Positions 14,451-39,677 of a DNA stretch of 64,000 nucleotides are shown here, in pieces. Within the stretch, counting starts at the first letter, position 1, and every line of letters begins with the position of its first letter. Made by a program: the position numbers and the translations under genes. The DNA comes from an uncultured Candidatus Peribacteria bacterium (GTDB lineage: Bacteria; Patescibacteriota; Gracilibacteria; Peribacterales; Peribacteraceae), in the NCBI GenBank assembly GCA_964497975.1, contig CAZCFO010000002.1:115768-179767 (forward strand), in the 5' to 3' direction. The notes beneath the pieces were generated by a model. That model was given only the letters and a program-made list of their open reading frames with translations, did not search any database and had not been told where the DNA came from.

Positions 14451-14453
14451 TTA

Positions 14454-17270: not shown

Positions 17271-17281
17271 GTGACAAACAA

Positions 17282-19110: not shown

Positions 19111-19185
<75 letters not shown>

Positions 19186-19394: not shown

Positions 19395-19401
19395 TAAACA
19401 C

Positions 19402-23016: not shown

Positions 23017-24540
23017 GTGCATACGCGCGCCCGCCTCCACGGATGGCTGCTTCTCAGTACCGTCTTCTGCACGGGCGCATGCGTGCTGATTCTGGAGGTG
23101 CTTGCGGCCCGGCTGCTCGCGCCGTATTTCGGCAGCACGATGTACGCGTTTTCGAGCGTGATCGGCGTCACCCTCGGCGCTCTGAGCGTCGGGTACGCGC
23201 TCGGCGGGAGACTCGCGGACGCCCGGCCGAACGCCGCGTATTTCTTCGGCATCATTCTGGTGTCCGGTGCCGCGGTGCTGCTGACGAAGCTGCTTTCCGT
23301 CACGGCTCTCGTCCGATGGCACTCCGCGTTCTCCCTGGCGACGGGGCCCCTCGTCTTTTCCATTCTGCTCTTCACGATTCCTTGCGTGCTGCTCGGCATG
23401 CTCTCCCCCTTCGCGATCCGGCTCCTGCAGACGGAGGATCCGTCGCGGGTCGGCAGCCTTTCGGGAAACGTGTTCTTCTGCTCGACGCTCGGCAGCATCG
23501 GCGGGTCGTTTCTGGCAGGCTTTTTCCTGATCCCCACGCTCGGCGTGCAGTCGATCCTGCTGATGCTCGCCGCTGCCCTGCTCTGTATGGGCGGATTCGG
23601 GGTGCTGGTCTTCCGCAGCGGCCTGCGCCGGCCGATCCTTTTCGTGTTTGCAACGCTGCTGGCGTCCGTTCTTCTGGCTGCGGGCTCGCTGGAACGTCAC
23701 AATCCCGACATTCTGCATCAGGAGGAGGGGCTGTATCAGTCGATGATGATCTATGACGCCGAATTCCACGGCCGGATGGCGCGCTTCATGCGTCAGAACT
23801 TCAACGCCTCGTCCGCCGTCTACCTGGATACCGGCGAGCCGGTGTTCGCGTACACGCGCTACTACGCTCTCGCCGAAGCGCTGCATCCCGACCTGCGCAA
23901 GGCGCTCGTCATCGGCGCGGGGGCCTACACGATCCCGCAGCTGCTCCTCGGCAGTTCTCCCCAGGCGGTCACCGACGTCGTCGATATCGAGCCGTCGCTT
24001 CGGGACATCGCCCGGGAATACTTCGGCGTCGCCGATGATCCGCGGATCCGGACGTTCACCGCCGACGGGCGTCGGTTTTTGCAGGGCAGCGGCACGCAGT
24101 ACGATCTGATTTTCTCCGACGCCTACCAGAGCCTGTATTCGATCCCCTCGCATCTCGCGACGCTGGAATTCTTCCGCGCCGGTTCGGAGTCCCTCACGGA
24201 GCGCGGCGTCTTCCTGGTGAACTTCTCGGCGCGCATCCGGGACGAAAATCCCTCCCTGCTCTGGTCCGCGGTCCGCAGCTTCCGGGCGGCCTTTCCTCAT
24301 AGCGCCTTCTTCGCGGTGACGTCGAAGGACACGGAAGAGGTCCAGAACATCGTGTTCCTCGGGTGCAACCGGGAGTCCTGCGGGAATCCCTGCGCGGAGG
24401 CCATGGCATCGGCGTTCCTGGAGGAGGCATGTCGGAACCGGCTGACCGTGGACGACGGTATGCTCGCTGCCCACCCTCTCCTGACCGATGACTACGCACC
24501 GGTGGAATTTCTGGCGACCTTGCAGATGAAAGACTACTAA
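23017..24540 (+). CDS. fused membrane domain / spermidine-synthase-like methyltransferase-fold protein
   Basis: N-terminal roughly 220 aa with multiple hydrophobic helices. C-terminal VIGAGAYT...DVVDIEP...DLIFSDAY, typical of the spermidine synthase fold. GTG start. Confidence 0.7.
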   Translation: MHTRARLHGWLLLSTVFCTGACVLILEVLAARLLAPYFGSTMYAFSSVIGVTLGALSVGYALGGRLADARPNAAYFFGIILVSGAAVLLTKLLSVTALVRWHSAFSLATGPLVFSILLFTIPCVLLGMLSPFAIRLLQTEDPSRVGSLSGNVFFCSTLGSIGGSFLAGFFLIPTLGVQSILLMLAAALLCMGGFGVLVFRSGLRRPILFVFATLLASVLLAAGSLERHNPDILHQEEGLYQSMMIYDAEFHGRMARFMRQNFNASSAVYLDTGEPVFAYTRYYALAEALHPDLRKALVIGAGAYTIPQLLLGSSPQAVTDVVDIEPSLRDIAREYFGVADDPRIRTFTADGRRFLQGSGTQYDLIFSDAYQSLYSIPSHLATLEFFRAGSESLTERGVFLVNFSARIRDENPSLLWSAVRSFRAAFPHSAFFAVTSKDTEEVQNIVFLGCNRESCGNPCAEAMASAFLEEACRNRLTVDDGMLAAHPLLTDDYAPVEFLATLQMKDY

Positions 24541-24621: not shown

Positions 24622-24630
24622 TGATATAAC
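24622..24630 (+). promoter_or_regulatory. putative extended -10 element (TGATATAAC)
   Basis: In an AT-rich gap, 28 nt before the ATG at 24659, with TGGACA 17 nt upstream. The identical 9-mer recurs at 35763-35771. Confidence 0.3.
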
Positions 24631-24658: not shown

Positions 24659-25822
24659 ATGACTTTTATCAAGTCACCCGGTTCCGCTGTCCGCTTCCTC
24701 CCGTCCCTGGGGGGCTGCGCCTGCGCCTTCCTGCTGCTGTCGGCCTCCGTGCCTGCATCGGCACAGACGTACCAGGAGATCCAGAACTTCCGCATCGCGA
24801 TGACGGACGGCGCGTATTCCGCCGCCCCCGGAGCGGTTCTGACGTACAACATCAGCGTCACGAACTCCACGAGCGTCGCCATGAGCAACGTGAGCATCAG
24901 CGACACGGTTCCGCGCGAGCTCATCATCAACTCGGCATCCGATAACGCCGATATCAACGGACAGGTCGTCCAGTGGTCGGGCCTGACGTTTTTGCCCGGC
25001 GAGATGAAGCTCCTGACGCTCAAGGCGACCATCCAGATGTCGGTCCGCAACGCCGCAGTCATCATCAACACCGCGAAAATTGACGGAGGCGCGATGGCGC
25101 AGGACACCACCATCGTTCAGAACGGCCTCGGGCAGGGCGTCGGCTTATCGGTGACGCATAATCCCGACACGGCGGTTGCGGGACAGATTGTGTCGTACAC
25201 GCTGCGCCTGACGAACAGCGAACAGGCCACCAAGGACATCGACGTCCGCGCAAGCTTCAGCAGGAAATACGCGTTCCTGACGGCGACCGATCAGGGCCAT
25301 CCCCGTGGCAATCAGGTGGAGTGGAACAACCTCTTCGTGGACGGAAACGCCGCGCGCGACGTCATCGTTTCCTTCAAGGTCGACGACGCGGTGAAAGCCG
25401 GCGAGGTGCTCAGCTTCAACGCGAGCATTCCGGGCTCCCAGGTCGAAGATCCGGTGACGGTATCCGCCGCCGGCCCCGCACAGGTTGCGTCAAGCGCCAC
25501 GGTTTCCCAGCAGCCCGCCGATGCGTCGAGCGGCTATGGCGCGTTTCCGATCGATCCTAATGCCTACGTAAACGAGTCTGTTCCGACCGATTTCCTTCCG
25601 ACGGCGGTCGCAGAACCAGCGCCGGCTGCAGTGCTCGCGGAAACGCAGCAGATTATGCCCCAGACTGGTATCGCCGACTTCACGGGCGCACTTGAAAACA
25701 CCCGCATCTTCCTCCGTCCCATCGCCGAAAACCCCGCCGCCTCCGGCGCCACGGGACTGTCGTGGCTCCTTTCCGTTCCCGGTCTTCTGATCGGCGGACG
25801 CCTCGCGCGCCGCCGCCGGTAA
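24659..25822 (+). CDS. secreted surface protein with DUF11-like repeats and an extended LPXTG-like C-terminal signal
   Basis: Signal peptide. Modules GAVLTYNISVTNSTSVAMSNVSISDTVP and GQIVSYTLRLTNSEQATKDIDV. C-terminus MPQTGIADF..LENT..FL.P, then a hydrophobic stretch and RRRR. Confidence 0.7.
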   Translation: MTFIKSPGSAVRFLPSLGGCACAFLLLSASVPASAQTYQEIQNFRIAMTDGAYSAAPGAVLTYNISVTNSTSVAMSNVSISDTVPRELIINSASDNADINGQVVQWSGLTFLPGEMKLLTLKATIQMSVRNAAVIINTAKIDGGAMAQDTTIVQNGLGQGVGLSVTHNPDTAVAGQIVSYTLRLTNSEQATKDIDVRASFSRKYAFLTATDQGHPRGNQVEWNNLFVDGNAARDVIVSFKVDDAVKAGEVLSFNASIPGSQVEDPVTVSAAGPAQVASSATVSQQPADASSGYGAFPIDPNAYVNESVPTDFLPTAVAEPAPAAVLAETQQIMPQTGIADFTGALENTRIFLRPIAENPAASGATGLSWLLSVPGLLIGGRLARRRR

Positions 25823-25858
25823 TCACTGCGTGCGTTCATCCGGCGATTCCCCCCTTCC

Positions 25859-27442
25859 ATGATCCGATCCCCTCTCGCTCTCGGCCGCCGCATCCTCTTT
25901 ACCGCCCTTGTCGCGGCGGTTCCCTGCATTGTTGCGCCGTCCCAGGCACATGCTGCTGCGGATCCCGGATGCATCGACGTCTTCGTGGAAGTTTTCGACC
26001 CCGCGCTCAATCCACTGCCGTTTGCTCCGCAGTTCACCTTCCGCCTCGACGGATCAGCCAGCACGCAGAACAACGCCAACGGCGTCGCGGCATTCACCAA
26101 CGTGCAGTCCGGTTCCCATACCGTCACCATTGACCCGCACTCCGCTTGGCAGACCCTGTCGGTGACTCCCGGCGGCGGAGCGCTCTCCGTTCCGTACGGC
26201 CCCCAGTGCGTCACGGTTCTCTTCAAGATGCAGCTGCTTGTGCCTCCGAGTTCCAGCTCCAGCTCGTCGTCCAGCGTCGCCACCGGATGCATCCGCGTCG
26301 TGAAGCAGACGATCGACGCCGGCGGAGCGCCCATCACGCCCGTGGAGCCGTTTGATTTCTGGCTCGACGGCAACCAGGGCATCACACAGACGAACGACGC
26401 CGCCGGCAACGCCGTCTTCCAGAATATCGCCGCTCCCGGCATGCATCAGATCAATGAATTCCCGAAGGCCGGCTGGACCCTCGTCTCCTGGGTGCCGCAG
26501 AACGGCGACGTGATGGTCAATCCCGGCCCGGATTGCGCCGTGGTCACGTTCATCAATCAGAAGGCCGCCGGCTCCAGTTCCTCCTCAAGTTCGTCGAGTT
26601 CCTCGAGCTCCTCGTCCTCTTCTTCCTCCTCAAGCTCCTCGTCCTCGTCTTCCTCCTCAAGCTCCTCGTCCTCGTCTTCCTCCTCAAGCTCCTCCTCGTC
26701 GTCCAGTTCCTCTTCCTCGGGTCTTTCCGGTTGCATCAACGTGATCAAGAAGACGTTTGCCGAGGACGGCACGACGCCCGTCACGCCGGTCGTTCCGTTC
26801 ACCTTCACGCTCGATGGCAACGCCGGCATCACGGCGATCAACGACGCCACGGGCAACGCCACGTTCCAGAACGTCGCGGCGCCGGGCATGCATCAGGTCA
26901 ATGAGACGCCGCTGGCCGGCTGGACCCTGGTATCCACCGATCCGCCGAACGGCGACGTGATGGTCAATGCGGGGCCTGACTGCGCCACGGTGACCTTTGT
27001 GAACAAGCAGGGTTCCTCCAGTTCGTCATCGTCGAGCACGTCATCTTCCTCGTCCAGCTCCAGCTCGTCATCCTCCCAGAACGGAGGCGGTGGCGGCGGA
27101 GGAGGAGGCGGGGGCGGGGGTGGTGGAGGCAGCGGCGGACACCGCGGTCATGGCACGACATACCTCAGTTATCTGCCGCCGTCCGCGAATGTCGTCGTCC
27201 CGCCCGAGCCCAAACCTCCCCGCAGGCGCATCCAGCCGCCGGTGTACGTCCCGCCGCCGGTCATCAGCGAGCAGCCTCTGCCCAAGACCGGTATCGATGA
27301 CTTCATGCGCCCTCTTGAGAACACGCGCCGCTTCCTGATGCCCCTCGCTTCACGTGAAGGATCCGCTGTCCTGTCGTGGGCGGCGCTCGTCCTTACGGGC
27401 ATCGGCCTCGGCATCGCCGCCGGCAAAAAGGCCTTCCTGTAA
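25859..27442 (+). CDS. secreted surface protein with 3 Cys-capped repeats, 49-Ser linker, poly-Gly, Pro-rich stalk and an LPKTG-type signal
   Basis: Signal peptide MIRSPLALGRRILFTALVAAVPCIVAPSQAHA. Three GCIxVxK...C..V.F.N repeats. C-terminus LPKTGIDDF..LENT..FL.P, then a TM segment and KK. Confidence 0.75.
   Translation: MIRSPLALGRRILFTALVAAVPCIVAPSQAHAAADPGCIDVFVEVFDPALNPLPFAPQFTFRLDGSASTQNNANGVAAFTNVQSGSHTVTIDPHSAWQTLSVTPGGGALSVPYGPQCVTVLFKMQLLVPPSSSSSSSSSVATGCIRVVKQTIDAGGAPITPVEPFDFWLDGNQGITQTNDAAGNAVFQNIAAPGMHQINEFPKAGWTLVSWVPQNGDVMVNPGPDCAVVTFINQKAAGSSSSSSSSSSSSSSSSSSSSSSSSSSSSSSSSSSSSSSSSSSSSSSSSSGLSGCINVIKKTFAEDGTTPVTPVVPFTFTLDGNAGITAINDATGNATFQNVAAPGMHQVNETPLAGWTLVSTDPPNGDVMVNAGPDCATVTFVNKQGSSSSSSSSTSSSSSSSSSSSSQNGGGGGGGGGGGGGGGGSGGHRGHGTTYLSYLPPSANVVVPPEPKPPRRRIQPPVYVPPPVISEQPLPKTGIDDFMRPLENTRRFLMPLASREGSAVLSWAALVLTGIGLGIAAGKKAFL
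26573..26719 (+). repeat. in-frame 49-codon serine homopolymer containing a 27-nt tandem repeat
   Basis: 49 consecutive Ser codons counted by hand. The unit TCCTCCTCAAGCTCCTCGTCCTCGTCT is perfect at 26624-26650 and 26651-26677 and imperfect at 26678-26704. Confidence 0.9.
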
Positions 27443-27449
27443 TCCCCTC

Positions 27450-28463
27450 ATGCCGTCTACGCGCTTCGACCGTGCAATGGCCTGGCTGTACGCATGGTGC
27501 AGCGTTGTGATGACGGTGGGATTATATCTCGACGGATGGTCGCATCAGTTCATCTTCAATCAGATCGATTCGTTCTTCAATCCCTGGCACGCGGTGCTGT
27601 ACGCGGGATTCGCCGCGTGCGCCGTGACGCTCGCTGTGTGGACGTACCTTCGACGCAGCGCATTTCGTACGTTTGCGGATGCCGTTCCGCCGGGGCACGG
27701 ACTCTCGGCCTATGGCGCGATTGCGTTCCTGTGGGGCGGCATCGCCGACCTGACGTGGCATCAGCTTTTCGGTTTCGAAAAAGACATCGAGGGGTTCATC
27801 AGCCCCACGCACCTGGTCCTTGCCGCCGGCATGGCGCTGATGCTTGCGGGCAACGTGCGCCACTGGTCACGCACGCATGCGCGCGGGGAAAAGACGCATC
27901 TGTGGACAGGGCTGCCGCTCGTGTTGGGCATGCTGTGCATGCTGGCGCAGTGGACCTTCCTCACGCAGTACGGCCGCTACACCGACTTCACCGCGACGGG
28001 CATCTTTCCTGACGATGCATTCTATCGCTTCTGCACGCAGACCGTATCGATCCTCGGCATTCTCGTGTTCAGTGCGCTGCTCTCCGGCCTCTTCACGTAC
28101 GTCGGCCGTCGTGCATCCATCCCGTTCGGTTCGGTCACGGTTGTCCTGACGGCGCAGGTGTTCATGCTTGCGATGATCCGCTACGGCATCGACTTGGTTC
28201 CTGCGGGCATCGCCGCCGGCATCTCCGGAGATGTTTTGCTCCGCTATTTCCCGAAGCGGCTCGCTCAGGAAAGACTGCTGGTGTTTGCATTCACGCTCCC
28301 GGCGCTTTTTTACACGGCCGTACTTCTGGTTCTCCACGTGCACGGTGGGCTGTGGTGGTCCATGCATATCTGGAGCGGCGTGCCGGTATTCGCCGGTGCC
28401 GCTGGGCTTCTGGCCGGACTCGCCGGGACCCCGATGGAGCAGGGAAAGGAAACGGATGCATAG
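27450..28463 (+). CDS. polytopic membrane protein with His motifs, function unknown
   Basis: 337 aa with about 8-9 hydrophobic helices and motifs DGWSHQ, NPWH, LTWHQLFG and SPTH. ATG at 27450, 8 nt after the previous stop. Confidence 0.6.
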   Translation: MPSTRFDRAMAWLYAWCSVVMTVGLYLDGWSHQFIFNQIDSFFNPWHAVLYAGFAACAVTLAVWTYLRRSAFRTFADAVPPGHGLSAYGAIAFLWGGIADLTWHQLFGFEKDIEGFISPTHLVLAAGMALMLAGNVRHWSRTHARGEKTHLWTGLPLVLGMLCMLAQWTFLTQYGRYTDFTATGIFPDDAFYRFCTQTVSILGILVFSALLSGLFTYVGRRASIPFGSVTVVLTAQVFMLAMIRYGIDLVPAGIAAGISGDVLLRYFPKRLAQERLLVFAFTLPALFYTAVLLVLHVHGGLWWSMHIWSGVPVFAGAAGLLAGLAGTPMEQGKETDA

Positions 28464-28575
28464 GACAATTTCAGTCGCTTCGTTTGCCAGATTGTCTCCT
28501 TTGGAAAAGAACAGCGCTTATTTTGACAGTTATAAGTAATTATCGTACCGTGACTCACTTCGTTCCCCCGGTTTT

Positions 28576-31524
28576 ATGGATACCTTCCGCCTTGTGCGCC
28601 GTTTCCCCCTCGCTTTTGCGGGCATCGCTCTGACGTTTCTGCTGCCCATGCACGTGAGCGCATTCGGAAGCACGAACATGATGGTCGACAGCGCGTCGAT
28701 CGTGAAGACCGGACCGTTCACCATCCAGGCCGGAAATTTCATCACGTACACGCTGACGGTAAAGCGCTCGAGCCCCGCCCTCGACATTGTCATCAAGGAT
28801 ACGTTCCCCGCGCACCTCGTCTTCGATCCGGCGCAAAGCACGCCCGGATGCACGATCGCCGGCAACGTGGCAACCTGCAACTGGGCGCGCACGATCAACT
28901 GGTACTCCCCGCAAACGCAGACGACCACCTTCACACTGACGTTCTTCATCCCGCCGGCCAACCCGCCGTGCGTGCTTATCAACACCGCAACCGTGTCGAC
29001 CACTCCGCGCCTGATGTTCGGCGGCGGGCGCGTGGTCCCCAACAACATCATCGTCTACGACTCGGTGACGGCCAATAACACGAGCAGCACCACGACGGCT
29101 GTCACGAACTGCGCGACGAGTTCCTCCTCGTCTTCCTCCAGTTCTTCCAGTTCCGTGCCCACGCAGGGCTGCATCCGCGTCTTCAAGGAAACGTTCAACA
29201 TGCAGGGACAGCAGATCAGCACGGTCGCGCAGTTCACGTTTCATCTCGATGGCGGCGTCAGCGCGGTGAATGATGCGAACGGCGACGCGCTGTTCACCAA
29301 CGTCACTCCCGGAGTCCATACCATCACCGAAATCATCCCCAGCGGATGGACGCAGCTCAACGTCACCCCCGTAGCCGGCGTGGTGGTTGTCGCACCCGGA
29401 AGCCAGTGTGCCGGCGTGGTCTTTAAGAACCAGCAGACGCTTCCGTTCAGTTCCAGTTCCAGCTCCAGCAGCATGTCCAGTGTCCCCACGTCTGGCGGTG
29501 CGGGCTGCATCCGGATCGTCAAGGAAACCTACAACGCGCAAAACCAGCAGATCCCGCCGGTCATGCCGTTCACCTTCACGCTCGACGGCAATCCCGGGCT
29601 TACCGTGACCACCGATGCCTCCGGGGTCGCCACATTCACGGGCGTCGCCGCTCCCGGCGTGCACACCGTCACCGAAAACGTCCCCGCGGGTTGGACCGCC
29701 ATCGGCGTGGACCCCTCAGGCGGCGTCGTGATGGTGAACCCCGGACCGCAGTGTCCGACCATTACGTTTAAAAACCGCCAGAACACCGTCAGCTCCAGCT
29801 CCAGCTCCGTTCCCAGCTCGAGTTCCAGCAGCACGTCCAGCGTGCCGACGTCCGGTGGCGTGGGCTGCATCGAAATTGTGAAGGAGGCTTACAGCGCCCA
29901 GAACCAGCCCATCACGCCCGTGACGCCGTTCACGTTCACGCTTGATGGCAATTCCGGGCTCTCGGTAACGAACAATGCGTCGGGTGTCGCCGTTTTCCAG
30001 AACGTCGCTGCACCGGGCATCCACACGGTTGCCGAAATCGTTCCCGCGGGCTGGACGCTCACAAATGTGACTCCCGCAGGCGGCGTTGTGATGGTCAATC
30101 CCGGTGCACAGTGCACGAGGCTCACCTTCCGCAACCAGCAGAATGCGCCTGCCAGTTCGAGCTCCAGTTCCGTTCCCCCGGCGACCGGGTGCATCCAGAT
30201 TTTGAAGGAAACGTTCAATCCCCAGGGCCAGCCCATCACTCCTGTTGCGCAGTTCACGTACCAGCTGGACGGCGGACCCGTCACCCATAGCGATGGCTCG
30301 GGTAACGCGCAGTTCATCAATGTCACCGCTCCGGGCTTCCATACGATCAGCGAGATCGTTCCTCCGGGATGGACACTCATCAACGTGACGCCGCCGGGCG
30401 GCGTGGTGATGGTGAACCCCGGCAGCCAGTGCTCCGCGGTGGTGTTCAAAAACCAGCAGAACGTGCCGGTCGCCAGCTCCTCCAGTTCCAGCTCAAGCTC
30501 GGTTCCGGCTGCCGCACAGGTGGGCTGCATCGAAATCGTGAAGGAAACTTACACCTCGCAGAACCAGCCAATCACGCCCGTGATGCCGTTCACGTTCACG
30601 CTGGACGGAAATTCCGGATTGTCCGTCACCAATAACTCTGCAGGCGTCGCCGTCTTCCAGAACGTCGCTGCCCCCGGCATCCACACGATCGCCGAGATCG
30701 TGCCCGCCGGCTGGACGCTGACAAACGTCACCCCCGCGGGGGGTGTGGTGATGGTGAACCCCGGCGCGCAGTGCACCCGCGTGACCTTCAAAAACCAGCA
30801 GAACGCCCCCGCCAGCAGCTCCAGCAGCGCCGCTCCCGCAGGCATGGGCTGTATCCGCGTGCAGAAGTCTGCAGGCGTCTCACCGGTCCCGGCGTTCACG
30901 TTCACGCTCGACGGCAACTCCGGCATTTCGGTCACGAATGACGCGGCAGGCGTCGCCGTGTTCCAGAACGTCGCCGCTCCCGGCATGCACCACGTCGACG
31001 AAGCGCCGCTCGCCGGATGGACGCAGGCGTCCGTGTCTCCCGCCGGCGGCAATGTGATGGTCAACCCCGGACCAGACTGCGCCGTCGTGAACTTCGTGAA
31101 CACGCAGGCCGTGAGCTCTTCCAGCTCCAGCTCCTCCTCTCCGGCTTTGGGCTGCATCGACGTGCTCAAGGAAACGTACGACACGCTCGGCAATCCCCTG
31201 CCGCTCACCGCGCAGTTCACCTTCCGGCTCGACAACGGGCCAACCGCGACCAACACCAGCAACGGCCAGGCCCGCTTCAACAACGTGCCGCTCGGCATGC
31301 ACACGGTCACCGAGGATCTTCCCCCGTCGTGGACCCTGCTCTCCGTCACGCCGGTGAACGGCCAGGTGAACGTCACTTCCATCACGCAGTGCGCCACCGT
31401 CGTCTTCAAGAACAAGCAGACGCTCACCGGTCTCGGCGGCTCGTCCTCCAGCGTGAACCCGTTCTGGCTCAATAACACGAACCTGCAGTTCTGGCAGCTG
31501 TTCTACCAGTCACTCAACCCCTGA
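28576..31524 (+). CDS. giant secreted surface protein (982 aa) with 7 Cys-capped repeats and no C-terminal anchor signal
   Basis: Signal peptide MDTFRLVRRFPLAFAGIALTFLLPMHVSA, an N-terminal DUF11-like module (GNFITYTLTVKRSSPALDIVIKDTFP), then 7 repeats separated by Ser linkers. Confidence 0.8.
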   Translation: MDTFRLVRRFPLAFAGIALTFLLPMHVSAFGSTNMMVDSASIVKTGPFTIQAGNFITYTLTVKRSSPALDIVIKDTFPAHLVFDPAQSTPGCTIAGNVATCNWARTINWYSPQTQTTTFTLTFFIPPANPPCVLINTATVSTTPRLMFGGGRVVPNNIIVYDSVTANNTSSTTTAVTNCATSSSSSSSSSSSSVPTQGCIRVFKETFNMQGQQISTVAQFTFHLDGGVSAVNDANGDALFTNVTPGVHTITEIIPSGWTQLNVTPVAGVVVVAPGSQCAGVVFKNQQTLPFSSSSSSSSMSSVPTSGGAGCIRIVKETYNAQNQQIPPVMPFTFTLDGNPGLTVTTDASGVATFTGVAAPGVHTVTENVPAGWTAIGVDPSGGVVMVNPGPQCPTITFKNRQNTVSSSSSSVPSSSSSSTSSVPTSGGVGCIEIVKEAYSAQNQPITPVTPFTFTLDGNSGLSVTNNASGVAVFQNVAAPGIHTVAEIVPAGWTLTNVTPAGGVVMVNPGAQCTRLTFRNQQNAPASSSSSSVPPATGCIQILKETFNPQGQPITPVAQFTYQLDGGPVTHSDGSGNAQFINVTAPGFHTISEIVPPGWTLINVTPPGGVVMVNPGSQCSAVVFKNQQNVPVASSSSSSSSSVPAAAQVGCIEIVKETYTSQNQPITPVMPFTFTLDGNSGLSVTNNSAGVAVFQNVAAPGIHTIAEIVPAGWTLTNVTPAGGVVMVNPGAQCTRVTFKNQQNAPASSSSSAAPAGMGCIRVQKSAGVSPVPAFTFTLDGNSGISVTNDAAGVAVFQNVAAPGMHHVDEAPLAGWTQASVSPAGGNVMVNPGPDCAVVNFVNTQAVSSSSSSSSSPALGCIDVLKETYDTLGNPLPLTAQFTFRLDNGPTATNTSNGQARFNNVPLGMHTVTEDLPPSWTLLSVTPVNGQVNVTSITQCATVVFKNKQTLTGLGGSSSSVNPFWLNNTNLQFWQLFYQSLNP
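29167..31419 (+). repeat. array of 7 in-frame domain repeats of about 100-110 aa
   Basis: Each unit runs GCI..[VIL]K......F.[FL]DG.....D..G.A.F.NV..G.H...E..P.GW......P..G.V.V.....C..V.F.N.Q and is followed by a Ser-rich linker. Confidence 0.85.
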
Positions 31525-31526
31525 CG

Positions 31527-32303
31527 TCAGGCTTCACGCTTCCACTGCATTTCGAAGAGCGCGCCCAGCATGTGAGCCACGGGCGCGTTTTTCATGATGC
31601 ACGCGAACAGCGCGCGGCCCTCGATCGTCGCGATGAAGACCGAGTCGCCGCACGTCATGATTTCCACGGAGGACGGTCCGAAGACGTCTTCGTGGAGCAC
31701 CCGCGTTTCGCGCAGTCTTTCCAGGGTCTGGGCCGCCATGGCCTTCGCTTCGGGACAGTGCGACGCCAGCACCCGGGCCCGGATCTGCTTTTTCTTCCGC
31801 AGTGCGGTCAGCCTCGTGAAGCTCTTCGACAGGTCCGCATGCTCGCCCGAGAGATCCAGCGGCCGCATGAACGAGAGGGTCTCCGAACCGGCCGACGCCT
31901 TCTCGAGCATCTCCTGGTACGCGGCGACGAATCCATCCTTGCCTTCGAAGAAGTGTATGTGGGGAACGCTGGCGGCCCCCGCCATGAGGCCCGTGAGCTG
32001 TCCGGCGACGGCGCGCAGTTCCTCCTGCTGGTCGGCGAGGAGGTCTTTCTGGCGGTCGAGCATTGCCAGGATCCTCTGGGGCGGCTCGCAGGAATAGAGG
32101 TACGTGTTTTTCTTCTTGGTCGCCTTGAGGAAACCGCGCTGGGCCAGCTGGTTGCAGGTGAACTGCGTGGTGCTGCGGACGAGCCGTGCACGCTTGCTGA
32201 TGGTGGAAGCCGGCGCGGCGCCCAGGGGCAGCAGGGCGAGATACACGGCGGCTTCTTTGTCCGTGAGTCCGAGGTTCTGCAGGACGCGTTCGATGGAGGG
32301 CAT
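31527..32303 (-). CDS. TrmB-family transcriptional regulator
   Basis: MPSIERVLQNLGLTDKEAAVYLALLPLGAAPASTISKRARLVRSTTQFTCNQLAQRGFL is a TrmB-type winged helix, followed by a C-terminal effector-like domain. Track ORF trimmed to the ATG at 32303; alternative ATG at 32351. Confidence 0.7.
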   Translation of the reverse strand: MPSIERVLQNLGLTDKEAAVYLALLPLGAAPASTISKRARLVRSTTQFTCNQLAQRGFLKATKKKNTYLYSCEPPQRILAMLDRQKDLLADQQEELRAVAGQLTGLMAGAASVPHIHFFEGKDGFVAAYQEMLEKASAGSETLSFMRPLDLSGEHADLSKSFTRLTALRKKKQIRARVLASHCPEAKAMAAQTLERLRETRVLHEDVFGPSSVEIMTCGDSVFIATIEGRALFACIMKNAPVAHMLGALFEMQWKREA

Positions 32304-32471
32304 GGTCGCATCGTACACGATAATTCTTGAATTGACAAGTATTGTTGGCATCAAATTTTCGCTTAAGAATGCCAAAAAACAAGCATATGGGGGCAATTGT
32401 GCAATAAATCTTGTCGAAATCGACTTCTGTTCATAGAGTTCCTCCTTTTGTCCGCTACCCCCCCCGCTTCC

Positions 32472-35400
32472 ATGGCCCGCCCCCGCTACGGATTCCTGCG
32501 CAGGACAGTTGTTTTCGCCGTGACCGTCAGCACTGCCCTTGCGACGCAGCCGGCCGGCATTGCCCTGGCACTGTCGTCCGACGTCACCCTGAATGTGCAG
32601 CTCCAGGCTCCTGCGGGCCCCTTTGTGGACCATCTCACGAACGCGCTGGCCGTCGCTCCGGGGACGGACATCACCGTGCGCCTGACGTACGATAACCGGA
32701 TGGACCGCGCGGGCACCGACGCCCGCATTCAGGCGATGATCCCCGCCGGCTTCACGCTGCTGCCCGGGACCACGAAAAACTGCCTGCATCCGACGGATTC
32801 CGAGACGTTGTGCAACACGTCCCCCGGCCAGATGGGGCCGATTGTCGAACAGTCGGTCTGGAACGGAAGCTTCCTGGCCATCTCCCCCACTGCGGGAGTC
32901 GAAGGAGTCCCGCCCCATGAGACCATCGGCGTGCTCGAGATGGGCCGCCTGCACTATCTGACGCTCCGCTCGGAAGGCGTCGCCAACTATGAGAACGGCA
33001 ATCCGTACTCGCCGCTCAATACCCGCTGCGCGGCGAACATCAGTTCGCGTTTCGAAAACCCGTACGTCAATTACGCAGTTCCCACGAGCCCGACCTGTCC
33101 CGCCAGCGGCCGCGACCTGTTCGGGCAACGGTGGTTCATCGTCCGCAGCGAGGCCGTCGCCAACTATGAGAACGGCAATCCGCAACCGGCGGTCGATACC
33201 AGCTGCATCCTGAATATTTCCTCGCATTTCCAGAACACCCCCGTCGCCCAGTACGCGGTTCCGGGGAATCCCAGCTGTCCCTCGTATTCGCAGGATACGC
33301 TCGGCAAGCGGTACTACGTTATGCGGTCCGAGGCGGTCGCCAACTACGAGAACGGCAATTTCCAGGATCCCGACATGAACAGCTGCGCCATCAATATTTC
33401 GTCGTACTTCACCAATACCCCCGTCGCCACGTACGCCGTGCCCCGCAACCCCAGCTGTCCGTCGGTGTCACATGACTTGCTCGATCGCACCCGCGGCCGC
33501 GGCTACATCGAATTCCGCATGCGCGCGTCCACCGTGCCGGGCATCTACAACCTGCCCGCCACGATCACCGGCTCCGAATTCACGGCCGCTTCCGATGCCG
33601 GCGCCATCGAGATCCGGGGGCCGGGGACATCCTCGAGTTCCAGTTCCTCTTCCTCCCCCACCGCCTCCTTCGGTTGCATCCGCGTCATCAAGCAGACCCT
33701 CACCTCCGCGGGCGCGCCCTTCACGTCCCCGGAAGCCTTCAGCTTCTGGATGGACGGCAACCAGGGCATCTCCCGGACGACGGACGGCAGCGGCACCGCT
33801 ACGTTCACCAACGTGGCCGCGCCGGGCATGCACCACATCGATGAGTTCGCGAAGCCAGGATGGTTCCTCCAGTCCGTCAGTCCCGCAGGCGGCGACGTGA
33901 TGGTCCAACCGGGTTCCTCGTGCGCGGTCGTCACTTTCGTGAATCGGCAGGGGGCGTCTTCGAGTTCTTCCAGCAGCACTCCGCTCTTCCAGTGCAACGA
34001 CGGCGCCGATAACGACGGCGACGGGAAGATCGATTCCCAGGACCCGGGATGCCACAGCGATGGCAACGCGGCCAATCCCGCCTCGTACGTTTCCACCGAC
34101 AATGACGAGGCAAACCCGGCTGCATGCATTCCTGGCAATCAGCCGACGGTGCTCAAGAGCCAGTTCATCATCACGCCCAACGGCTATTGCTCGAATGCAT
34201 GGCAGTCGCAGATGTGCGCCAACCAGTTGCCAGTGGACTTCGTGCTCGCAAGCAGTACTCCATCCCTCCTCGTCCAGTATCACACCTATTCCGGACACTG
34301 CTCGTCCGTGCGCATCCACATCCGGCTGGATGGCATTCTCAAGACCGTCACCAGGTTCATGGGCTGGCCCACGGACTCCACCGGCTTCCTGGATATCGGC
34401 CCGGTGCCTGCCGGAAATCATCAACTGACATTCCAGGCGGAGGGCACGCCGGGAGGCTGCAATACCGGCACGCTGGGCGGATGGGGCGGCACAGTGAATA
34501 TCGCCCTTCCCGCCCAGAGCTGTCCTGTCGCGCCGCAGTGTTCGGACGCAGCTGATAATGACGGCGACGGCAAGATCGACAGCCAGGATCCGGGGTGTCA
34601 CAGCGACGGCAATGCGGCTAACCCCGCATCCTACGTACCGACGGGCAACGATGAGTTCAATGCCGCGGCGTCCTCGTCATCCTCCAGCAGCTCCACGGCC
34701 AGCACGGGGGTGGGCTGCATCCGCATCGTGAAGCAGGCGCAGAACGCCGCAGGCGCTCCCATCAACTCCACGGAGCCCTTCACCTTCACGCTCGACGGCA
34801 ATCCGTCCCTCAACGTCACCACCGATGCCAACGGGAATGCGACCTTCCAGAACGTCGCCGCCCCCGGCATCCATACGGTCGCTGAACTCTCCAAGAGCGG
34901 ATGGACTCTCCAATCCATGTCCCCCGCAAACGGCGAGGTTCTGGTCCAGCCCGGAGGCAACTGCGCGGTTCTCACGGTCGTGAACCGCCAGACAGGAGCT
35001 TCCAGCTCAAGTTCGAGCTCTTCCATCGGTCAGGGCTGCATCAAGGTCTTCAAGGAGACGTACAACGCCAGCGGCCAGCCGATCGCGACCGTCGCCCAGT
35101 TCACCTTCGTCCTCGACGGAGGGGTCCAGATCCAGAATGACGCAAACGGCAACGCCCAGTTCAACGCTGTCTCCACCGGCGTCCACACCGTCACCGAGGT
35201 CCTTCCCCAGGGCTGGAACCAGCTCAACGTCACGCCCGCTTCGGGCGTCGTGATCGTCTCCCCCGGCAGCCAGTGCGCCGGCGTGGTCTTCAAGAACCAG
35301 CAGACGCTGCCCGTCAGCAGCTCCGTCGCGAATGCCAACACCGGCTGCATCCGCATCGTCAAGCAGACGGTCACGTCGGCGGGGGCGCCCATCACTCCGG

Positions 35401-35633
35401 TTGAGCCGTTCACCTTCATCCTCGATGGCAATCCGAGCCTGAATGCGGTGAATGACGCCTCCGGAACGGCCATCATCCAGAACGTCGCCGCTCCGGGCAT
35501 GCACCAGATCACGGAAACCCCCAAAGCCGGTTGGACAGTCCAATCGATGTCGCCGGTTAACGGCGACGTGATGGTCCAGCCGGGTTCCGCCTGCGCCACC
35601 CTGACGATCGTCAACCGAAAGACAGGGGGGTGA
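32472..35633 (+). CDS. giant secreted surface protein (1053 aa) with a novel triple Cys repeat, 4 Cys-capped repeats and two DNDGDG modules
   Basis: Signal-like N-terminus MARPRYGFLRRTVVFAVTVSTALATQPAGIALA. Module composition was read directly from the translation. Trimmed to the ATG at 32472 because the track start is TTG. Confidence 0.8.
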   Translation: MARPRYGFLRRTVVFAVTVSTALATQPAGIALALSSDVTLNVQLQAPAGPFVDHLTNALAVAPGTDITVRLTYDNRMDRAGTDARIQAMIPAGFTLLPGTTKNCLHPTDSETLCNTSPGQMGPIVEQSVWNGSFLAISPTAGVEGVPPHETIGVLEMGRLHYLTLRSEGVANYENGNPYSPLNTRCAANISSRFENPYVNYAVPTSPTCPASGRDLFGQRWFIVRSEAVANYENGNPQPAVDTSCILNISSHFQNTPVAQYAVPGNPSCPSYSQDTLGKRYYVMRSEAVANYENGNFQDPDMNSCAINISSYFTNTPVATYAVPRNPSCPSVSHDLLDRTRGRGYIEFRMRASTVPGIYNLPATITGSEFTAASDAGAIEIRGPGTSSSSSSSSSPTASFGCIRVIKQTLTSAGAPFTSPEAFSFWMDGNQGISRTTDGSGTATFTNVAAPGMHHIDEFAKPGWFLQSVSPAGGDVMVQPGSSCAVVTFVNRQGASSSSSSSTPLFQCNDGADNDGDGKIDSQDPGCHSDGNAANPASYVSTDNDEANPAACIPGNQPTVLKSQFIITPNGYCSNAWQSQMCANQLPVDFVLASSTPSLLVQYHTYSGHCSSVRIHIRLDGILKTVTRFMGWPTDSTGFLDIGPVPAGNHQLTFQAEGTPGGCNTGTLGGWGGTVNIALPAQSCPVAPQCSDAADNDGDGKIDSQDPGCHSDGNAANPASYVPTGNDEFNAAASSSSSSSSTASTGVGCIRIVKQAQNAAGAPINSTEPFTFTLDGNPSLNVTTDANGNATFQNVAAPGIHTVAELSKSGWTLQSMSPANGEVLVQPGGNCAVLTVVNRQTGASSSSSSSSIGQGCIKVFKETYNASGQPIATVAQFTFVLDGGVQIQNDANGNAQFNAVSTGVHTVTEVLPQGWNQLNVTPASGVVIVSPGSQCAGVVFKNQQTLPVSSSVANANTGCIRIVKQTVTSAGAPITPVEPFTFILDGNPSLNAVNDASGTAIIQNVAAPGMHQITETPKAGWTVQSMSPVNGDVMVQPGSACATLTIVNRKTGG
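32970..33506 (+). repeat. three in-frame tandem repeats of about 59-60 aa
   Basis: Units begin at 32970, 33147 and 33327: SE[GA]VANYENGN......C..NISS.F.N..V..YAVP..P.CP. Two Cys per unit. Confidence 0.8.
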
Positions 35634-35680
35634 CGCTATTTCCGGAAAAAGGGGTTTTTCTCGGGGGAATAGCGGATAAA

Positions 35681-35711
35681 GCCAAAGCCGGCATTGCGCC
35701 GGCTTTTTGGC
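35681..35711 (+). terminator. rho-independent terminator after the 1053-aa gene
   Basis: GCCAAAGCCGGC-attgc-GCCGGCTTTTTGGC: a 9-bp perfect GC-rich core stem extended by outer pairs, with a T run. Confidence 0.65.
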
Positions 35712-35762
35712 TTCCTAGGGGTATTTGGGGCCAAATTTGGACTATACATCAATAAAATTGTG

Positions 35763-35771
35763 TGATATAAC
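35763..35771 (+). promoter_or_regulatory. putative extended -10 element (TGATATAAC)
   Basis: Same 9-mer as at 24622-24630, 23 nt before the ATG at 35795, in an AT-rich gap. Confidence 0.3.
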
Positions 35772-35794
35772 TTCCCCCTTTTGTCCCCAATCCT

Positions 35795-37657
35795 ATGTTT
35801 TCGTCTGTCTGCCGCCGATTCCTCGCTGTTTCCCTGGCGCTCCCCCTCGTCCTCCCGCTGAGTGCGGTGGTAACCGTCGCCGAGCATGCCCATGCGGACT
35901 ACACCGACTGCAGTGACGGCATCGACAACGACGGCGACCGCCGGATCGATTACCCCGAAGATCCCGAGTGCTCCTCCATCAACGACACGACGGAGGACTA
36001 CAACCCCGGCATCTTCGTGACCGTCACGGACAACCGCGACCAGATCAACCCGAGCGGCGCCCTCACGTACGTCATCACGCTCAAGCAGCAGCGCGACCCC
36101 GTGGCGCTCGTCGACGTGTCGTTTCATGTTCCCGCGCAGCATTCCATCGTCTCCACGAGCGATGACGGCTCCATCGTCCCCGGCACGGTGCACTGGACGA
36201 AGGTCGCCGTGTTCAAGGACAACGTGCGCCGCCTGCAGGTGCACGTCGCCGTGAGCCCCCATGCGGGCCGCGGTCAGCTGATCGTCGCCCAGGTGAGCGC
36301 GGGCAACAACCAGTCAACCGACACCACGATGATCAACCCGCAGAACGTCCTCCCTTACCCGCAGAACCAGCTGCAGGTGACGGTGAGCGACCACCGCGAC
36401 AACGCGCTCGGCGGCGATATCCTCGATTACGTCATCACGGTCAAGAACCCCGAGCCGAACCCCGCCACGTTCCACGTGCAGGCGACGATCCCGCCCGCGC
36501 TGCAGATGATGGATGCCCAGGGCGCCGACCGCATGGGCGACCGCCTCGTCTGGCAGAACATCACCCTCAACCCCGGGCAGGAGCGCGCCTTCGTCTTCCG
36601 CGCCTCCGTGCACAACCAGGTTCCCAACCGCTATCCGATCCAGGTGGTGGCGCGCGCCGGCAATGTCGTCGCGACCGACCGCACGATCGTCGGCTCCGGC
36701 GGCGCGGGCCCGTACTCCCTCTTCGGCACCATCACCGACAACCGGGATGTCGCCGAGCGCGGCGACCTGCTCACCTACCGCATCCACGTCGACAACACGT
36801 CCGGCCGCCTCGAGACGGGCGCCAACATCGACGCCGCCATCCCCAACTACGTCGAATTCGTTTCGGCGACGGAAGGCGGAACGCTCGACAACCGCAACGT
36901 CCGCTGGCTCCGCACGATCGTCGCCCCGGGCAGCAGCCGCGACCTGAGCTTCACGGTCCGCGTGCGCACCGACGCCCCCGATCGCGCCCTCCTGCGCGCC
37001 ACGGCCACCATCCAGGGCGCCACGGCCAGCGACATCACGGAGGTCGGCGGCGGCCAGTACAGCTACGGCTCGTACATTTCGTCGTCCCGCGGCACCGGCT
37101 ACGGCACCCCCGGATCCCTTTCGGTCCGAAAGACCTCCGATAACCGCGCCGCCTACCCGGGCAGCACGGTCTCGTACACGCTGACAGTCCGCAACGCCGA
37201 CGGCGGCGAGCTCCGCAACGTGGCGGTCACCGATAACTTCAACCCGTCCGACTTCGTCGTCACGGACGCCGGCGCCGGCAACGTCGAGCAGGGCCGCATC
37301 GCCTGGAACATTGACACGCTCCGCCCCGGCGAGACCCGTTCCTTCCGCTACACCGGGCGCATCGCGCGCGTCGGCGGCGATTCCCTCGTCAACACCGCCC
37401 AGGCCTACACCGCGGACCTCGATTACGCCGCCATGGCGGGTTCCAACGTCGCGGTCTACGACGGTTACCACGGCGACTACCTGATGCCCCAGACGGGCGC
37501 CGGTGATTTCTTCGGCCCGATCGAAAACACCGCTCAGTTTCTCACGCCCGTGAGCGCGGCGACGGAGGGCAACGCCCTGCCGCTTCTTCTCTGGATTGCT
37601 TTGATTGTTGGAGGCGTGGCTGTGGGAGGTGTGGCAAGCAAGAAGTTCATCGTCTGA
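35795..37657 (+). CDS. secreted surface protein with a DNDGD module, DUF11-like repeats and an MPQTG-type extended signal
   Basis: Signal peptide. CSDGIDNDGDRRIDYPEDPEC. Repeats GALTYVITLKQQRD, GDILDYVITVKNPEPN, GDLLTYRIHVDNTSG and GSTVSYTLTVRNADGGELRNVAVTDNF. C-terminus MPQTGAGDF..IENT..FL.P, then a TM segment and KK. Confidence 0.75.
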   Translation: MFSSVCRRFLAVSLALPLVLPLSAVVTVAEHAHADYTDCSDGIDNDGDRRIDYPEDPECSSINDTTEDYNPGIFVTVTDNRDQINPSGALTYVITLKQQRDPVALVDVSFHVPAQHSIVSTSDDGSIVPGTVHWTKVAVFKDNVRRLQVHVAVSPHAGRGQLIVAQVSAGNNQSTDTTMINPQNVLPYPQNQLQVTVSDHRDNALGGDILDYVITVKNPEPNPATFHVQATIPPALQMMDAQGADRMGDRLVWQNITLNPGQERAFVFRASVHNQVPNRYPIQVVARAGNVVATDRTIVGSGGAGPYSLFGTITDNRDVAERGDLLTYRIHVDNTSGRLETGANIDAAIPNYVEFVSATEGGTLDNRNVRWLRTIVAPGSSRDLSFTVRVRTDAPDRALLRATATIQGATASDITEVGGGQYSYGSYISSSRGTGYGTPGSLSVRKTSDNRAAYPGSTVSYTLTVRNADGGELRNVAVTDNFNPSDFVVTDAGAGNVEQGRIAWNIDTLRPGETRSFRYTGRIARVGGDSLVNTAQAYTADLDYAAMAGSNVAVYDGYHGDYLMPQTGAGDFFGPIENTAQFLTPVSAATEGNALPLLLWIALIVGGVAVGGVASKKFIV

Positions 37658-38305: not shown

Positions 38306-38980
38306 TCAGGCCTTGGGCAGGCCGATGCGGCTGGAGCTGAAGGCTTTTTTGGTCGGCCGCGACGGCACGGGCTTTTCGTCCGTCGACAGAGCCGGCTTCG
38401 ATCCCTTCAGGGCGCTCTCCTGGATATGTCCGGCGACGAAATCCGACAGCAGCGTCTGGATGTGCTTGGCGTTCTTCATGTTCTTGGAATGCAGGTAGCC
38501 CTCCATGTTGCGCAGGATTTCGGATTCGACGCGGCGCGGGTTGGGCACCTGTGCCACCGAGATGGCCGAGCCGGTGGAAATCTTCTCGATCGATACCGAC
38601 CCGTAGCGCAGCAGGGTGCCCAGGACTCCCTGGATCTCGTAACTGACGCCCTGGATGTCGCTATAGAGGATGCGGGCGGACTGCCGGTGAAACCATCCCT
38701 TCCATTCGAGATCGATGATCCCGTGATCAGTGATGATCCAGGCGTCGAGGTAATAATCGAAAAAATTCCGGGACAGCCACAGAAGCGACAACCCCTCCCA
38801 CAGCAGGCCCGTGACCAGCGCGGTCTGCGAATGGCGCAGCACCAGCAGGGCCGCTGCTGCAAGAAACGAAGCGGCGGGCAGCGCGAGAACCCGCAGGCCC
38901 AGCAGCCAGTGCCGGTGCACGATCATCCGGACGTGCTCGTCGTCCTCCAGATGCTTATGAAACAGCAGGGAATCCAGCAT
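38306..38980 (-). CDS. membrane protein with a bacterial PH (YdbS/YdbT-like) domain
   Basis: Two N-terminal helices followed by ITDHGIIDLEWKGWFHRQSARILYSDIQGVSYEIQGVLGTLLRYGSVSIE. Trimmed to the ATG at 38980. Confidence 0.55.
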   Translation of the reverse strand: MLDSLLFHKHLEDDEHVRMIVHRHWLLGLRVLALPAASFLAAAALLVLRHSQTALVTGLLWEGLSLLWLSRNFFDYYLDAWIITDHGIIDLEWKGWFHRQSARILYSDIQGVSYEIQGVLGTLLRYGSVSIEKISTGSAISVAQVPNPRRVESEILRNMEGYLHSKNMKNAKHIQTLLSDFVAGHIQESALKGSKPALSTDEKPVPSRPTKKAFSSSRIGLPKA

Positions 38981-39050
38981 GGCCCCCAGTGTACATCTAT
39001 CGCGCAAAGTGCTGTACACAAGCGGGATGGCACTCCTACAATTCCCGGGC

Positions 39051-39677
39051 ATGCGCATCCAAAAACACGGTTTCTGGTATCACCTGCTCGACGTTCTGTT
39101 CAACATCGTCGTGATCGTGGCCATTGTGGCGGCAATCAGGACGTTCCTCGTCTCCCCCTTCCAGGTGGAAGGCAGCTCGATGGTGGATACCCTCGCCGAC
39201 AAGGAATACATCATCATCAACAAATTCGCCTACCTTGCGGGCGATCCCAGGCGCGGCGACGTGGTGGTGTTCCGGCCTCCCAACGATCCGGACAAATATT
39301 ACGTGAAGCGAGTCATCGGCATGCCGGGCGACAAGGTGATCATCCGCGACGGGTTCGTGTACCTGCAGACCCCCGACGACACGACCGAGAGGAAAATCGA
39401 CGAATCCTCGTACCTCAATTCGCGCAATATCGGCCAGACGTATCGGCACCCGCCCAGCAGCGGCGACAAGACGCCCGAAGTCTACGAGGTTCCGGCGGAC
39501 CAGTATTTCCTCCTGGGCGACAACCGCCAGGGCAGCCTGGATTCGCGGAGCTTCATGACCGAAAGCGGCAAGCCCGTGCCGTTCGTCGCCGATGCCGAAA
39601 TCAAGGGGCGCGTCTGGTTTATCGCTTTGCCCATCACCAAGATTCACGCGATCGAGGCGCCGGAGTACGGCATCTGA
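39051..39677 (+). CDS. lepB: signal peptidase I
   Basis: Catalytic Ser context VEGSSMVDTL, KRVIGMPGD, LLGDNRQGSLDSR. Trimmed to the ATG at 39051; alternative at 39027. Confidence 0.85.
   Translation: MRIQKHGFWYHLLDVLFNIVVIVAIVAAIRTFLVSPFQVEGSSMVDTLADKEYIIINKFAYLAGDPRRGDVVVFRPPNDPDKYYVKRVIGMPGDKVIIRDGFVYLQTPDDTTERKIDESSYLNSRNIGQTYRHPPSSGDKTPEVYEVPADQYFLLGDNRQGSLDSRSFMTESGKPVPFVADAEIKGRVWFIALPITKIHAIEAPEYGI

Follow-up and report, generated by a model that had tools for sequence, protein, structure and literature searches.

Bacteria of the candidate phyla radiation (CPR) are thought to live attached to other cells, and little is known of how their surfaces are built. The question is raised in concrete form by a 13-kb surface-protein locus in a stretch of 64,000 nucleotides (nt), hereafter the window, from an uncultured Candidatus Peribacteria bacterium (positions 115,768 to 179,767 of contig CAZCFO010000002.1, assembly GCA_964497975.1). 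Five genes of this locus encode exported proteins of up to 1053 amino acids (aa); what are these proteins made of, how would they be held at the cell, and which enzyme would attach them? The probable answer is a variable island of Sec-exported fibrillar stalk proteins, three of which would be anchored by sortase through an extended LPXTG signal and two of which, the giants of 982 and 1053 aa, would be secreted. CnaB/CLIPPER stalks and LPXTG-type anchoring are of an already known kind, and similar large extracellular proteins have been noted before in this class of organism. New here is the clade-specific extended LPXTG signal, which is common to 64 protein clusters. The locus comprises seven genes:

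24659 to 25822, forward strand: 387-aa secreted protein with a signal peptide, two DUF11/CLIPPER-like domains, a Pro/Ala-rich segment and an extended LPXTG-type signal.
25859 to 27442, forward strand: 527-aa secreted protein with a signal peptide, three CnaB-like repeats, poly-Ser, poly-Gly, a Pro-rich segment and an extended signal.
27450 to 28463, forward strand: polytopic membrane protein (the public gene call starts at 27477 and gives 328 aa).
28576 to 31524, forward strand: 982-aa secreted protein with a signal peptide, a DUF11-like N-terminal domain, seven CnaB-like repeats, poly-Ser linkers and a 34-aa aromatic tail, without an anchor.
31527 to 32303, reverse strand: TrmB-family helix-turn-helix regulator, convergent with the 982-aa gene and divergent from the 1053-aa gene.
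32472 to 35633, forward strand: 1053-aa secreted protein with a signal peptide, an N-terminal region with three repeats of ~57 aa, four CnaB-like repeats and two acidic double-disulfide repeats, without an anchor.
35795 to 37657, forward strand: 620-aa secreted protein with a signal peptide, one acidic double-disulfide-like repeat, four DUF11/CLIPPER domains and an extended signal.

A check of the window found all seven open reading frames (ORFs) where a preliminary description had placed them, and their third-position guanine-plus-cytosine (GC) content of 0.76-0.90 is typical of real genes in a window of 61% GC. That description had read the locus as five same-strand genes for signal-peptide proteins, interrupted only by a His-motif polytopic membrane protein and an opposite-strand TrmB regulator, and this layout holds. 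All five large proteins begin with a Sec-type N-terminus comprising a basic n-region, a hydrophobic core and a small-x-small site, as judged by direct reading of the sequences. In genome searches, both the membrane protein and the 620-aa protein have their best matches in Candidatus Peribacteria/Peribacteraceae (CPR, Peregrinibacteria).

The 387-, 527- and 620-aa proteins end in the same kind of signal, which consists of [LM]P[QK]TG, a spacer of 21-25 aa containing DFxx[PA][LI]ENTxxFLxP, a short hydrophobic/transmembrane segment and a basic tail. The pentapeptide is MPQTG in the 387-aa protein (nt 25655, tail to 25819), LPKTG in the 527-aa protein (nt 27278-27292) and MPQTG in the 620-aa protein (nt 37484, tail to 37654), and the basic tails are RLARRRR, GKKAFL and SKKFIV, respectively. 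A scan for C-terminal signals of the form PxTG, transmembrane segment and basic residues found only these three in the 64 kb, all in this locus, in agreement with the earlier view that anchor signals are present on three proteins and absent from the two giants. The wall-spanning regions of Gram-positive LPXTG proteins are Pro-rich ahead of the motif. Pro-rich segments likewise lie ahead of LPKTG and MPQTG here, and that of the 527-aa protein is wall-spanning-like.

The origin of this signal can be read from orthologues of the 620-aa protein. The close ones (52-62% identity, n=12) carry the extended signal with a spacer of 24-25 aa, whereas the distant ones (34-39% identity, n=14) carry at the same place a canonical PxTG with a spacer of 2-4 aa, a transmembrane segment and a basic tail. 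Because the distant orthologues have the canonical form there, the extended signal is a derived, clade-specific form of the ordinary LPXTG signal. The ancestral signal would have gained, in this clade, an insert of 20-25 residues (DF..P[LI]ENT..FL.P) between the pentapeptide and the transmembrane segment. The extended signal is also found on other proteins in three Peribacteria loci (L004, L006 and L126), and the spacer ranges from 16 to 37 aa in relatives. Moreover, when 1.84 billion cluster representatives were searched with a profile built from the three window tails, 64 of them matched; these proteins are 58-2597 aa long, and the match lies in every case at the C-terminus or within ~15 residues of it. 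The pattern xPx[TSA]G is kept in 62 of the 64 signals, and CLIPPER domains are present in nine of ten sampled cargo proteins. The extended signal is, as judged by sequence comparison, a clade-specific elaboration of LPXTG, and this is the key result of the analysis. It provides a simple marker for listing the anchored surface proteome, on which the standard anchor models were silent in the present scans.

Four of the matched proteins (P0148, P0150, P0157 and P0171) combine the extended C-terminal signal with a lipoprotein-like N-terminus (...LLLTAC...), which would amount to two membrane or wall attachment signals per protein. Other searches for the signal were empty. A profile of six signal tails gave no match at E<=10 in an index of 5.8 billion proteins, the query being too short for a database of that size; a peptide-pattern scan of metagenomes gave 91 pattern matches, none confirmed; and a DNA pattern for PLENTRRFL gave 39 metagenome matches, none of them a real C-terminal signal. 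The DNA pattern did meet a recurrent 22-codon ORF, KPLENTRRFLRIFFQNFFCAVC, in metagenome contigs of low GC (~0.36; L090, L092, L094, L096, L097, L110, L120 and L121). This ORF has no relation to the signal and probably represents a conserved element, either non-coding or a leader.

The preliminary description had considered the processing enzyme of these proteins not obvious. Housekeeping sortase genes are normally unlinked to their substrates. Because the core of the signal is LPXTG and is canonical in the 14 distant orthologues, a sortase encoded elsewhere in the genome is the parsimonious enzyme, and because the pentapeptide stays conserved, sortase-type transpeptidation would still be in use. 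The extended signal is thus most likely processed by an unlinked housekeeping sortase, which makes the enzyme less of a mystery. Complete Peribacteria genomes reportedly carry genes for a sortase A, for S-layer proteins and for large extracellular proteins, rich in Cys, that differ from strain to strain (PMC4736985). A literature search on sortases of CPR/Patescibacteria found nothing beyond the 2016 Peribacteria paper.

In the proposed mechanism, the precursors of the 387-, 527- and 620-aa proteins would be held in the membrane by the C-terminal transmembrane segment and basic tail, and the housekeeping sortase would cut [LM]PxTG between T and G and join the protein to peptidoglycan. Strong conservation marks the insert, even though the presumed sortase cut precedes it. 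Being C-terminal to the expected cut, the insert would therefore act before cleavage or as the cleaved peptide. A plausible role would be to adjust the presentation of the pentapeptide to sortase, or its recognition, farther from the membrane, and the extended signal thus raises the question of how substrates are presented to this enzyme.

The exported parts of the proteins are assembled from few module types. The preliminary description had listed DUF11-like modules, Cys-capped repeats, Ser homopolymer linkers and CxDGxDNDGDxxxD modules, and all of these are recovered by Pfam and NCBIfam searches and by reading of the sequences. The Cys-capped repeat is ~91 aa long, and alignment yields the 14 copies counted before, with three in the 527-aa, seven in the 982-aa and four in the 1053-aa protein. 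C2 and C81 are invariant in all 14 copies, and 13 copies retain K7, E55 and N88. The degenerate copy, which comes first in the 527-aa protein, lacks this conserved Lys, Glu and Asn. With DNA identities of only 60-81% between copies, the repeats are neither an assembly artefact nor the product of a recent duplication. In Pfam searches with the whole protein, the 982-aa protein matches the SpaA-type prealbumin families PF17802 (E 1.3e-13) and PF24514 (E 3.8e-13), and the 1053-aa protein matches the same two families.

The single-repeat model that had been proposed earlier was built with AlphaFold 2 (AF2) on the alignment of the 14 copies. The model is very confident (predicted local distance difference test, pLDDT, 97); of its eight strands, the first bears C2 and K7 and the last bears C81 and N88. 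The top match in a Foldseek search of the PDB is the CnaB2 domain 8bdw (TM-score 0.72, probability 1.00), followed by the pilins RrgB, GBS52, SpaA and BcpA and the B domains of SdrD/UafA; a profile of the repeat gave nothing significant against PDB sequences. The Cys-capped repeat is, according to this model, a CnaB-type domain. Each domain is probably stapled between its first and last strands by a Glu-catalysed Lys-Asn isopeptide and by a Cys-Cys disulfide, both predicted from the residues and their strand positions.

DUF11 has been renamed CLIPPER, a CnaA-like isopeptide domain of fibrillar adhesins, and disulfides are common in such isopeptide domains according to the same survey (PMC12617251). 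PF01345 matches the 387-aa protein (E 4e-13, 50.1 bits) and the 620-aa protein (E 1.5e-30, 106.3 bits) well above its cutoff of 24.6 bits, and TIGR01451 matches as well. PDB sequence searches with the 620-aa and the 1053-aa protein gave no significant match. The CxDGxDNDGD modules correspond to the acidic double-disulfide repeat of NCBIfam, NF033662, which occurs twice in the 1053-aa protein (E 1.6e-16); a single match in the 620-aa protein is weak and falls below the cutoff. The Ser linkers include runs of up to ~50 residues, the length reached in the 527-aa protein; they are coded by mixed Ser codons, and a 27-nt unit is repeated 3.9 times in the longest run. The proteins would thus form stalks in which chains of CnaB-type and CLIPPER/DUF11 (CnaA-like) domains are exported by Sec and connected by flexible, possibly glycosylated, poly-Ser linkers. 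An adhesive function may be presumed from the sequences. For Peribacteria this offers a concrete picture of Gram-positive-style stalks of cross-linked CnaB/CLIPPER domains that are probably anchored to the wall.

The two giants share these stalk modules. In the 1053-aa protein the two acidic repeats flank a Cys-rich domain of ~150 aa, and the end of the protein directly follows the last CnaB repeat. Residues 36-390 of this protein, its ~150-aa Cys-rich region and residues 30-190 of the 982-aa protein have no Pfam or PDB sequence match, and these N-terminal and Cys-rich domains are likely the ligand-binding parts. Within the first of these regions, three tandem repeats of ~57 aa without a family match (window 32965-33245, residues ~165-340) follow the pattern RSEAVANYENGNP...C..NISS.F.N.PV..YAVP..PSCP, and this repeat may be a novel binding module. 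Because the giants have no anchor, they would be secreted and then either released or held non-covalently. Two SLH-domain proteins are encoded in the window (11040-12527 and 46091-47377, one with an esterase-like domain), so that the organism would also anchor proteins non-covalently through SLH domains, beside the LPXTG-type proteins. Together with the MurJ and MurC-like genes of the window, the SLH-domain proteins are in keeping with an envelope that has both a wall and an S-layer.

Downstream of the 620-aa gene come pth, a bPH-domain gene, lepB, secE, nusG, murJ, purL, the gene of an SLH protein, and murC. The preliminary description had stated that the locus has no sortase or secretion genes. 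This holds in the window for sortase, as described below, whereas two housekeeping secretion genes lie just downstream of the cluster:

38979 to 39677: lepB.
40198 to 40392: secE.

The order pth-lepB-secE-nusG and onward recurs beside orthologues of the 620-aa gene in four relatives (L126, L127, L132 and L133). This gene is the sole member of the cluster that is conserved in position, and its orthologues always adjoin pth. The content upstream of them is different in each relative examined: L126 has other CLIPPER proteins, L127 a recombinase and a radical-SAM gene, and L132 redox and SLH genes. In the window, 30 kb separate tgt (6136-7281) from pth (37744) and enclose the surface-protein locus. 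In L132 the 620-aa orthologue lies about 9 kb from tgt, and the whole tgt-pth interval (730-12065) is about 9-11 kb long and has other contents. Because both the upstream content and the length of the tgt-pth interval vary among relatives, the cluster lies in a variable chromosomal interval in which the last gene alone is a fixed landmark, and envelope genes appear to be gained and lost there unusually often. The cluster is accordingly not conserved as a unit. The earlier suggestion of a dedicated envelope or adhesion system does not agree with this comparison of neighbourhoods, nor with a membrane protein that has no LPXTG link beyond one Peribacteria subclade.

Several observations weigh against sortase-anchored stalks of the kind proposed. 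No gene with a sortase-like TLxTC motif is present in the 64-kb window, as had been noted before, and no sortase was found within 10 kb of six 620-aa orthologue loci and ~85 membrane-protein loci, nor by a TLxTC motif search of about 90 of the related loci. The hydrophobic segment does not lie within a few residues of the pentapeptide, where canonical LPXTG signals have it. The anchor models PF00746 and TIGR01167 do not match the window signals (Pfam E<=0.01, NCBIfam E<=0.1), which is weak evidence as short models are easily filtered. The first-strand Lys is kept, by eye, in only one of the ~7 CLIPPER-like domains of the locus, and the isopeptide and disulfide of the CnaB-type domains are predictions from conserved residues on the expected strands. 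In addition, one relative (L086, membrane protein 57% identical) has the same order as the window, with an anchored protein, the membrane protein and then an ORF similar to the 982-aa protein, which allows some possibility that the membrane protein and the surface proteins are functionally linked.

The alternative that survives best, though doubtful, is that the giants arose from anchored proteins by decay or truncation and do not work as secreted partners, the cluster being a recombination-prone graveyard and nursery of surface modules. In its favour, a 2597-aa CLIPPER/CnaB mosaic of L004 (P0147) ends in the extended signal, the 1053-aa protein stops right after a CnaB repeat, 2 nt separate the stop of the 982-aa gene from where the convergent TrmB gene ends, and the modules common to several genes are 60-81% identical at the DNA level. 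However, both giants are intact ORFs of ~3 kb with a third-position GC content of 0.82-0.83 and their own signal peptides, and the 1053-aa gene has its own terminator. Furthermore, the ORF that lies directly downstream of the membrane-protein homologue in L086, although truncated by the contig end, retains the similarity to the N-terminal domain and CnaB repeats of the 982-aa protein. Secretion of intact giants remains the preferred interpretation.

A second alternative concerns the signal itself. Its two parts, the pentapeptide and DF..P[LI]ENT..FL.P, might together call for a second factor in this one Peribacteria clade, either the adjacent His-cluster membrane protein or a specialised sortase; this is unlikely, and if it were true, CPR bacteria would have a new pathway for the sorting or quality control of surface proteins. 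The membrane protein is encoded 7-34 nt past the stop of the 527-aa gene and deserves a description of its own. Its family has 98 homologues in the protein index and more than 586 loci in GTDB species genomes (Peribacteria; Chloroflexota including Ktedonobacteria and Anaerolineae; Rokubacteria; Actinobacteria; others), and no Pfam or NCBIfam model matches it even at E<=1 across 24 members. The motifs DGWxH, PWH, DxxWH, GxE and SPxH are invariant or nearly so. They provide four conserved His, three invariant and the fourth present in at least 90% of 92 members, as well as conserved Asp and Glu; the family has no invariant Cys. By the positive-inside rule, these motifs are probably located at the outer ends of the first four helices and face outward. 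The AF2 model is confident (pLDDT 94.4; predicted template modelling score, pTM, 0.92) and resembles no PDB fold (best E 0.48, TM-score at most 0.33 among the 50 best matches). Membership in the exosortase, archaeosortase or rhombosortase families was considered and rejected on the lack of a Pfam/NCBIfam match (E<=1, 24 members) and of an invariant Cys. The family is widespread and unannotated, with a confidently predicted fold unlike those in the PDB; it is new apart from the surface-protein finding and merits its own study.

In the form of this alternative that invokes the membrane protein, a metalloenzyme with a metal site on the outer face would cleave or transfer at DF..P[LI]ENT..FL.P, alone or after sortase. 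The close spacing to the 527-aa gene, the gene order repeated in L086, the presence of extended-signal proteins 2-9 kb downstream of a membrane-protein homologue in L004 and L006, the conservation of the insert beyond the presumed cut, and the invariant His, Asp and Glu in a protein of no known family or PDB fold are all consistent with it. Against it, the family occurs in many phyla, and among 80 loci examined none of those outside Peribacteria has an LPXTG-type neighbour. No neighbour is conserved across phyla; only msrA recurs, at five Peribacteria loci and one Chloroflexi locus. In L084, where the contig extends 2 kb downstream of the homologue, gene calling gives no surface-protein gene in that stretch, and in L126, L127, L132 and L133 extended-signal proteins are present with no homologue within 10 kb. 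The retention of xPx[TSA]G in 62 of 64 signals also speaks for a sortase-type step under selection. The usual site of the membrane protein in Peribacteria is just after recG-miaA-clpP-tgt (L004, L006 and L084), which puts it and the 620-aa gene at opposite ends of the variable interval, the membrane protein on the tgt side. Because the membrane-protein gene and its extended-signal neighbour both lie in the tgt-pth interval, their adjacency may be positional alone. The membrane protein is most likely a neighbour by common chromosomal position and not a component of the system. A functional link to the surface proteins is possible but unlikely, and a new sorting pathway centred on it is correspondingly improbable.

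The weakest alternative, a sortase-assembled pilus in which the CnaB-repeat giants would form a shaft or tip polymerised onto the anchored proteins, is suggested by the pilins among the nearest PDB folds and by the combination of anchored and unanchored proteins, but it is rejected as scarcely credible because the giants have no LPXTG signal and hence cannot be sortase donors, because no class C sortase is found in or near the locus, and because the proteins are long multi-domain stalks with poly-Ser linkers that resemble fibrillar adhesins, unlike pilins of 2-4 domains, with no YPKN-type pilin motif seen on reading the sequences.

Sortase-anchored stalks agree with known systems in most respects. 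Similar to the LPXTG surface proteins of sortase A (MSCRAMM/fibrillar-adhesin type, e.g. SdrD and Cna), the proteins of the locus have a Sec signal, a CnaB-type stalk, a Pro-rich segment, an [LM]PxTG-hydrophobic-basic ending and a presumably unlinked enzyme gene. In contrast, the insert ahead of the transmembrane segment is 20-25 aa here and ~2-6 aa in the canonical proteins, PF00746/TIGR01167 do not report the signal at the thresholds used, the host belongs to the CPR, two of the five proteins have no anchor, and each CnaB module has a Cys pair. The CLIPPER fibrillar adhesins (PMC12617251) also have tandem CLIPPER domains in secreted stalks, and the last CLIPPER domain of the 620-aa protein retains, by eye, the Lys...Asp...Asn positions; unlike in those adhesins, most domains here are without the first-strand Lys and are joined to acidic double-disulfide repeats and the extended signal. 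The Cys-rich extracellular proteins of Peribacteria (PMC4736985) come from the same class and are likewise large, exported and Cys-containing, with a suggested role in attachment beside reported sortase and S-layer genes. The module architecture, the CnaB/CLIPPER assignment and the extended signal are found here and not in the passages of that paper on surface proteins, where the term LPXTG does not occur. Finally, the PEP-CTERM/exosortase and GlyGly-CTERM/rhombosortase systems share the C-terminal short motif, transmembrane segment and basic cluster, the restriction to lineages and the many cargo proteins. They differ in that the motif here is derived from LPXTG, and in that no exosortase-, archaeosortase- or rhombosortase-like gene was found and the membrane protein matches none of these.

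Three putative transcription signals flank the first and last genes of the cluster:

24622 to 24630, forward strand: extended -10-like 9-mer TGATATAAC, 28 nt upstream of the ATG of the 387-aa gene.
35763 to 35771, forward strand: second copy of TGATATAAC, 23 nt upstream of the ATG of the 620-aa gene and followed by the pyrimidine-rich leader CCCTTTTGT.
About 35680 to 35713, forward strand: intrinsic-terminator-like hairpin and U run downstream of the 1053-aa gene (minimum free energy -24.6 kcal/mol, z -2.48).

The identical 9-mer before the first and last genes had been pointed out earlier, and it occurs exactly twice in the 64 kb against 0.06 expected. A TGnTATAA element with a CCCTTTTGT-type leader also stands upstream of 620-aa orthologues in L126 (~9960-10000), L127 (~4545-4587) and L130 (~9960-10000). 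The strong terminator described ahead of the last gene was recovered by folding and was missed by a consensus scanner. A leader similar to CCCTTTTGT, with the sequence TCCTCCTTTTGTCC, precedes the 1053-aa gene (32436-32471). The pyrimidine-rich leader resembles the anti-Shine-Dalgarno sequence itself and not its complement, and YCCYTTTGT occurs four times in the window against one expected.

The regulator matches PF01978 over residues 8-75, its N-terminal winged helix (E 5.4e-12, 45.8 bits, cutoff 25.6), and matches the full-length sugar-sensing TrmB equivalogs of NCBIfam far below their cutoffs. A promoter-like site (32338-32310) ends 7 nt ahead of its ATG, and the regulator probably controls the flanking genes. 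No TrmB match is present at L004, L006 and the other 83 loci, except L002.

Upstream of the cluster, the tgt-pth interval also holds a segment of distinct composition:

14400 to 21635: integrated-element-like segment of low GC (~0.50, against 0.61 in the window).

Here a large serine recombinase (15753-17270; Resolvase, Recombinase and Zn-ribbon domains) adjoins a tRNA-Gln gene (19111-19185, reverse strand), and a PIF1/RecD-like helicase follows at 19980-21635. The segment looks like a mobile element integrated at the tRNA gene. Directly upstream of the cluster, 23017-24540 encodes a fused MFS/spermidine-synthase-like membrane protein (NF037959, E 1.9e-68). Many gene starts of the window (e.g. 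4405-5322, 23017, 47423-48706, 49829 and 54965-55432) lack a Shine-Dalgarno sequence and show a TAnnnT-like -10 element whose end is ~6-10 nt upstream of the start codon, which suggests that leaderless or near-leaderless mRNAs are widespread in this organism.

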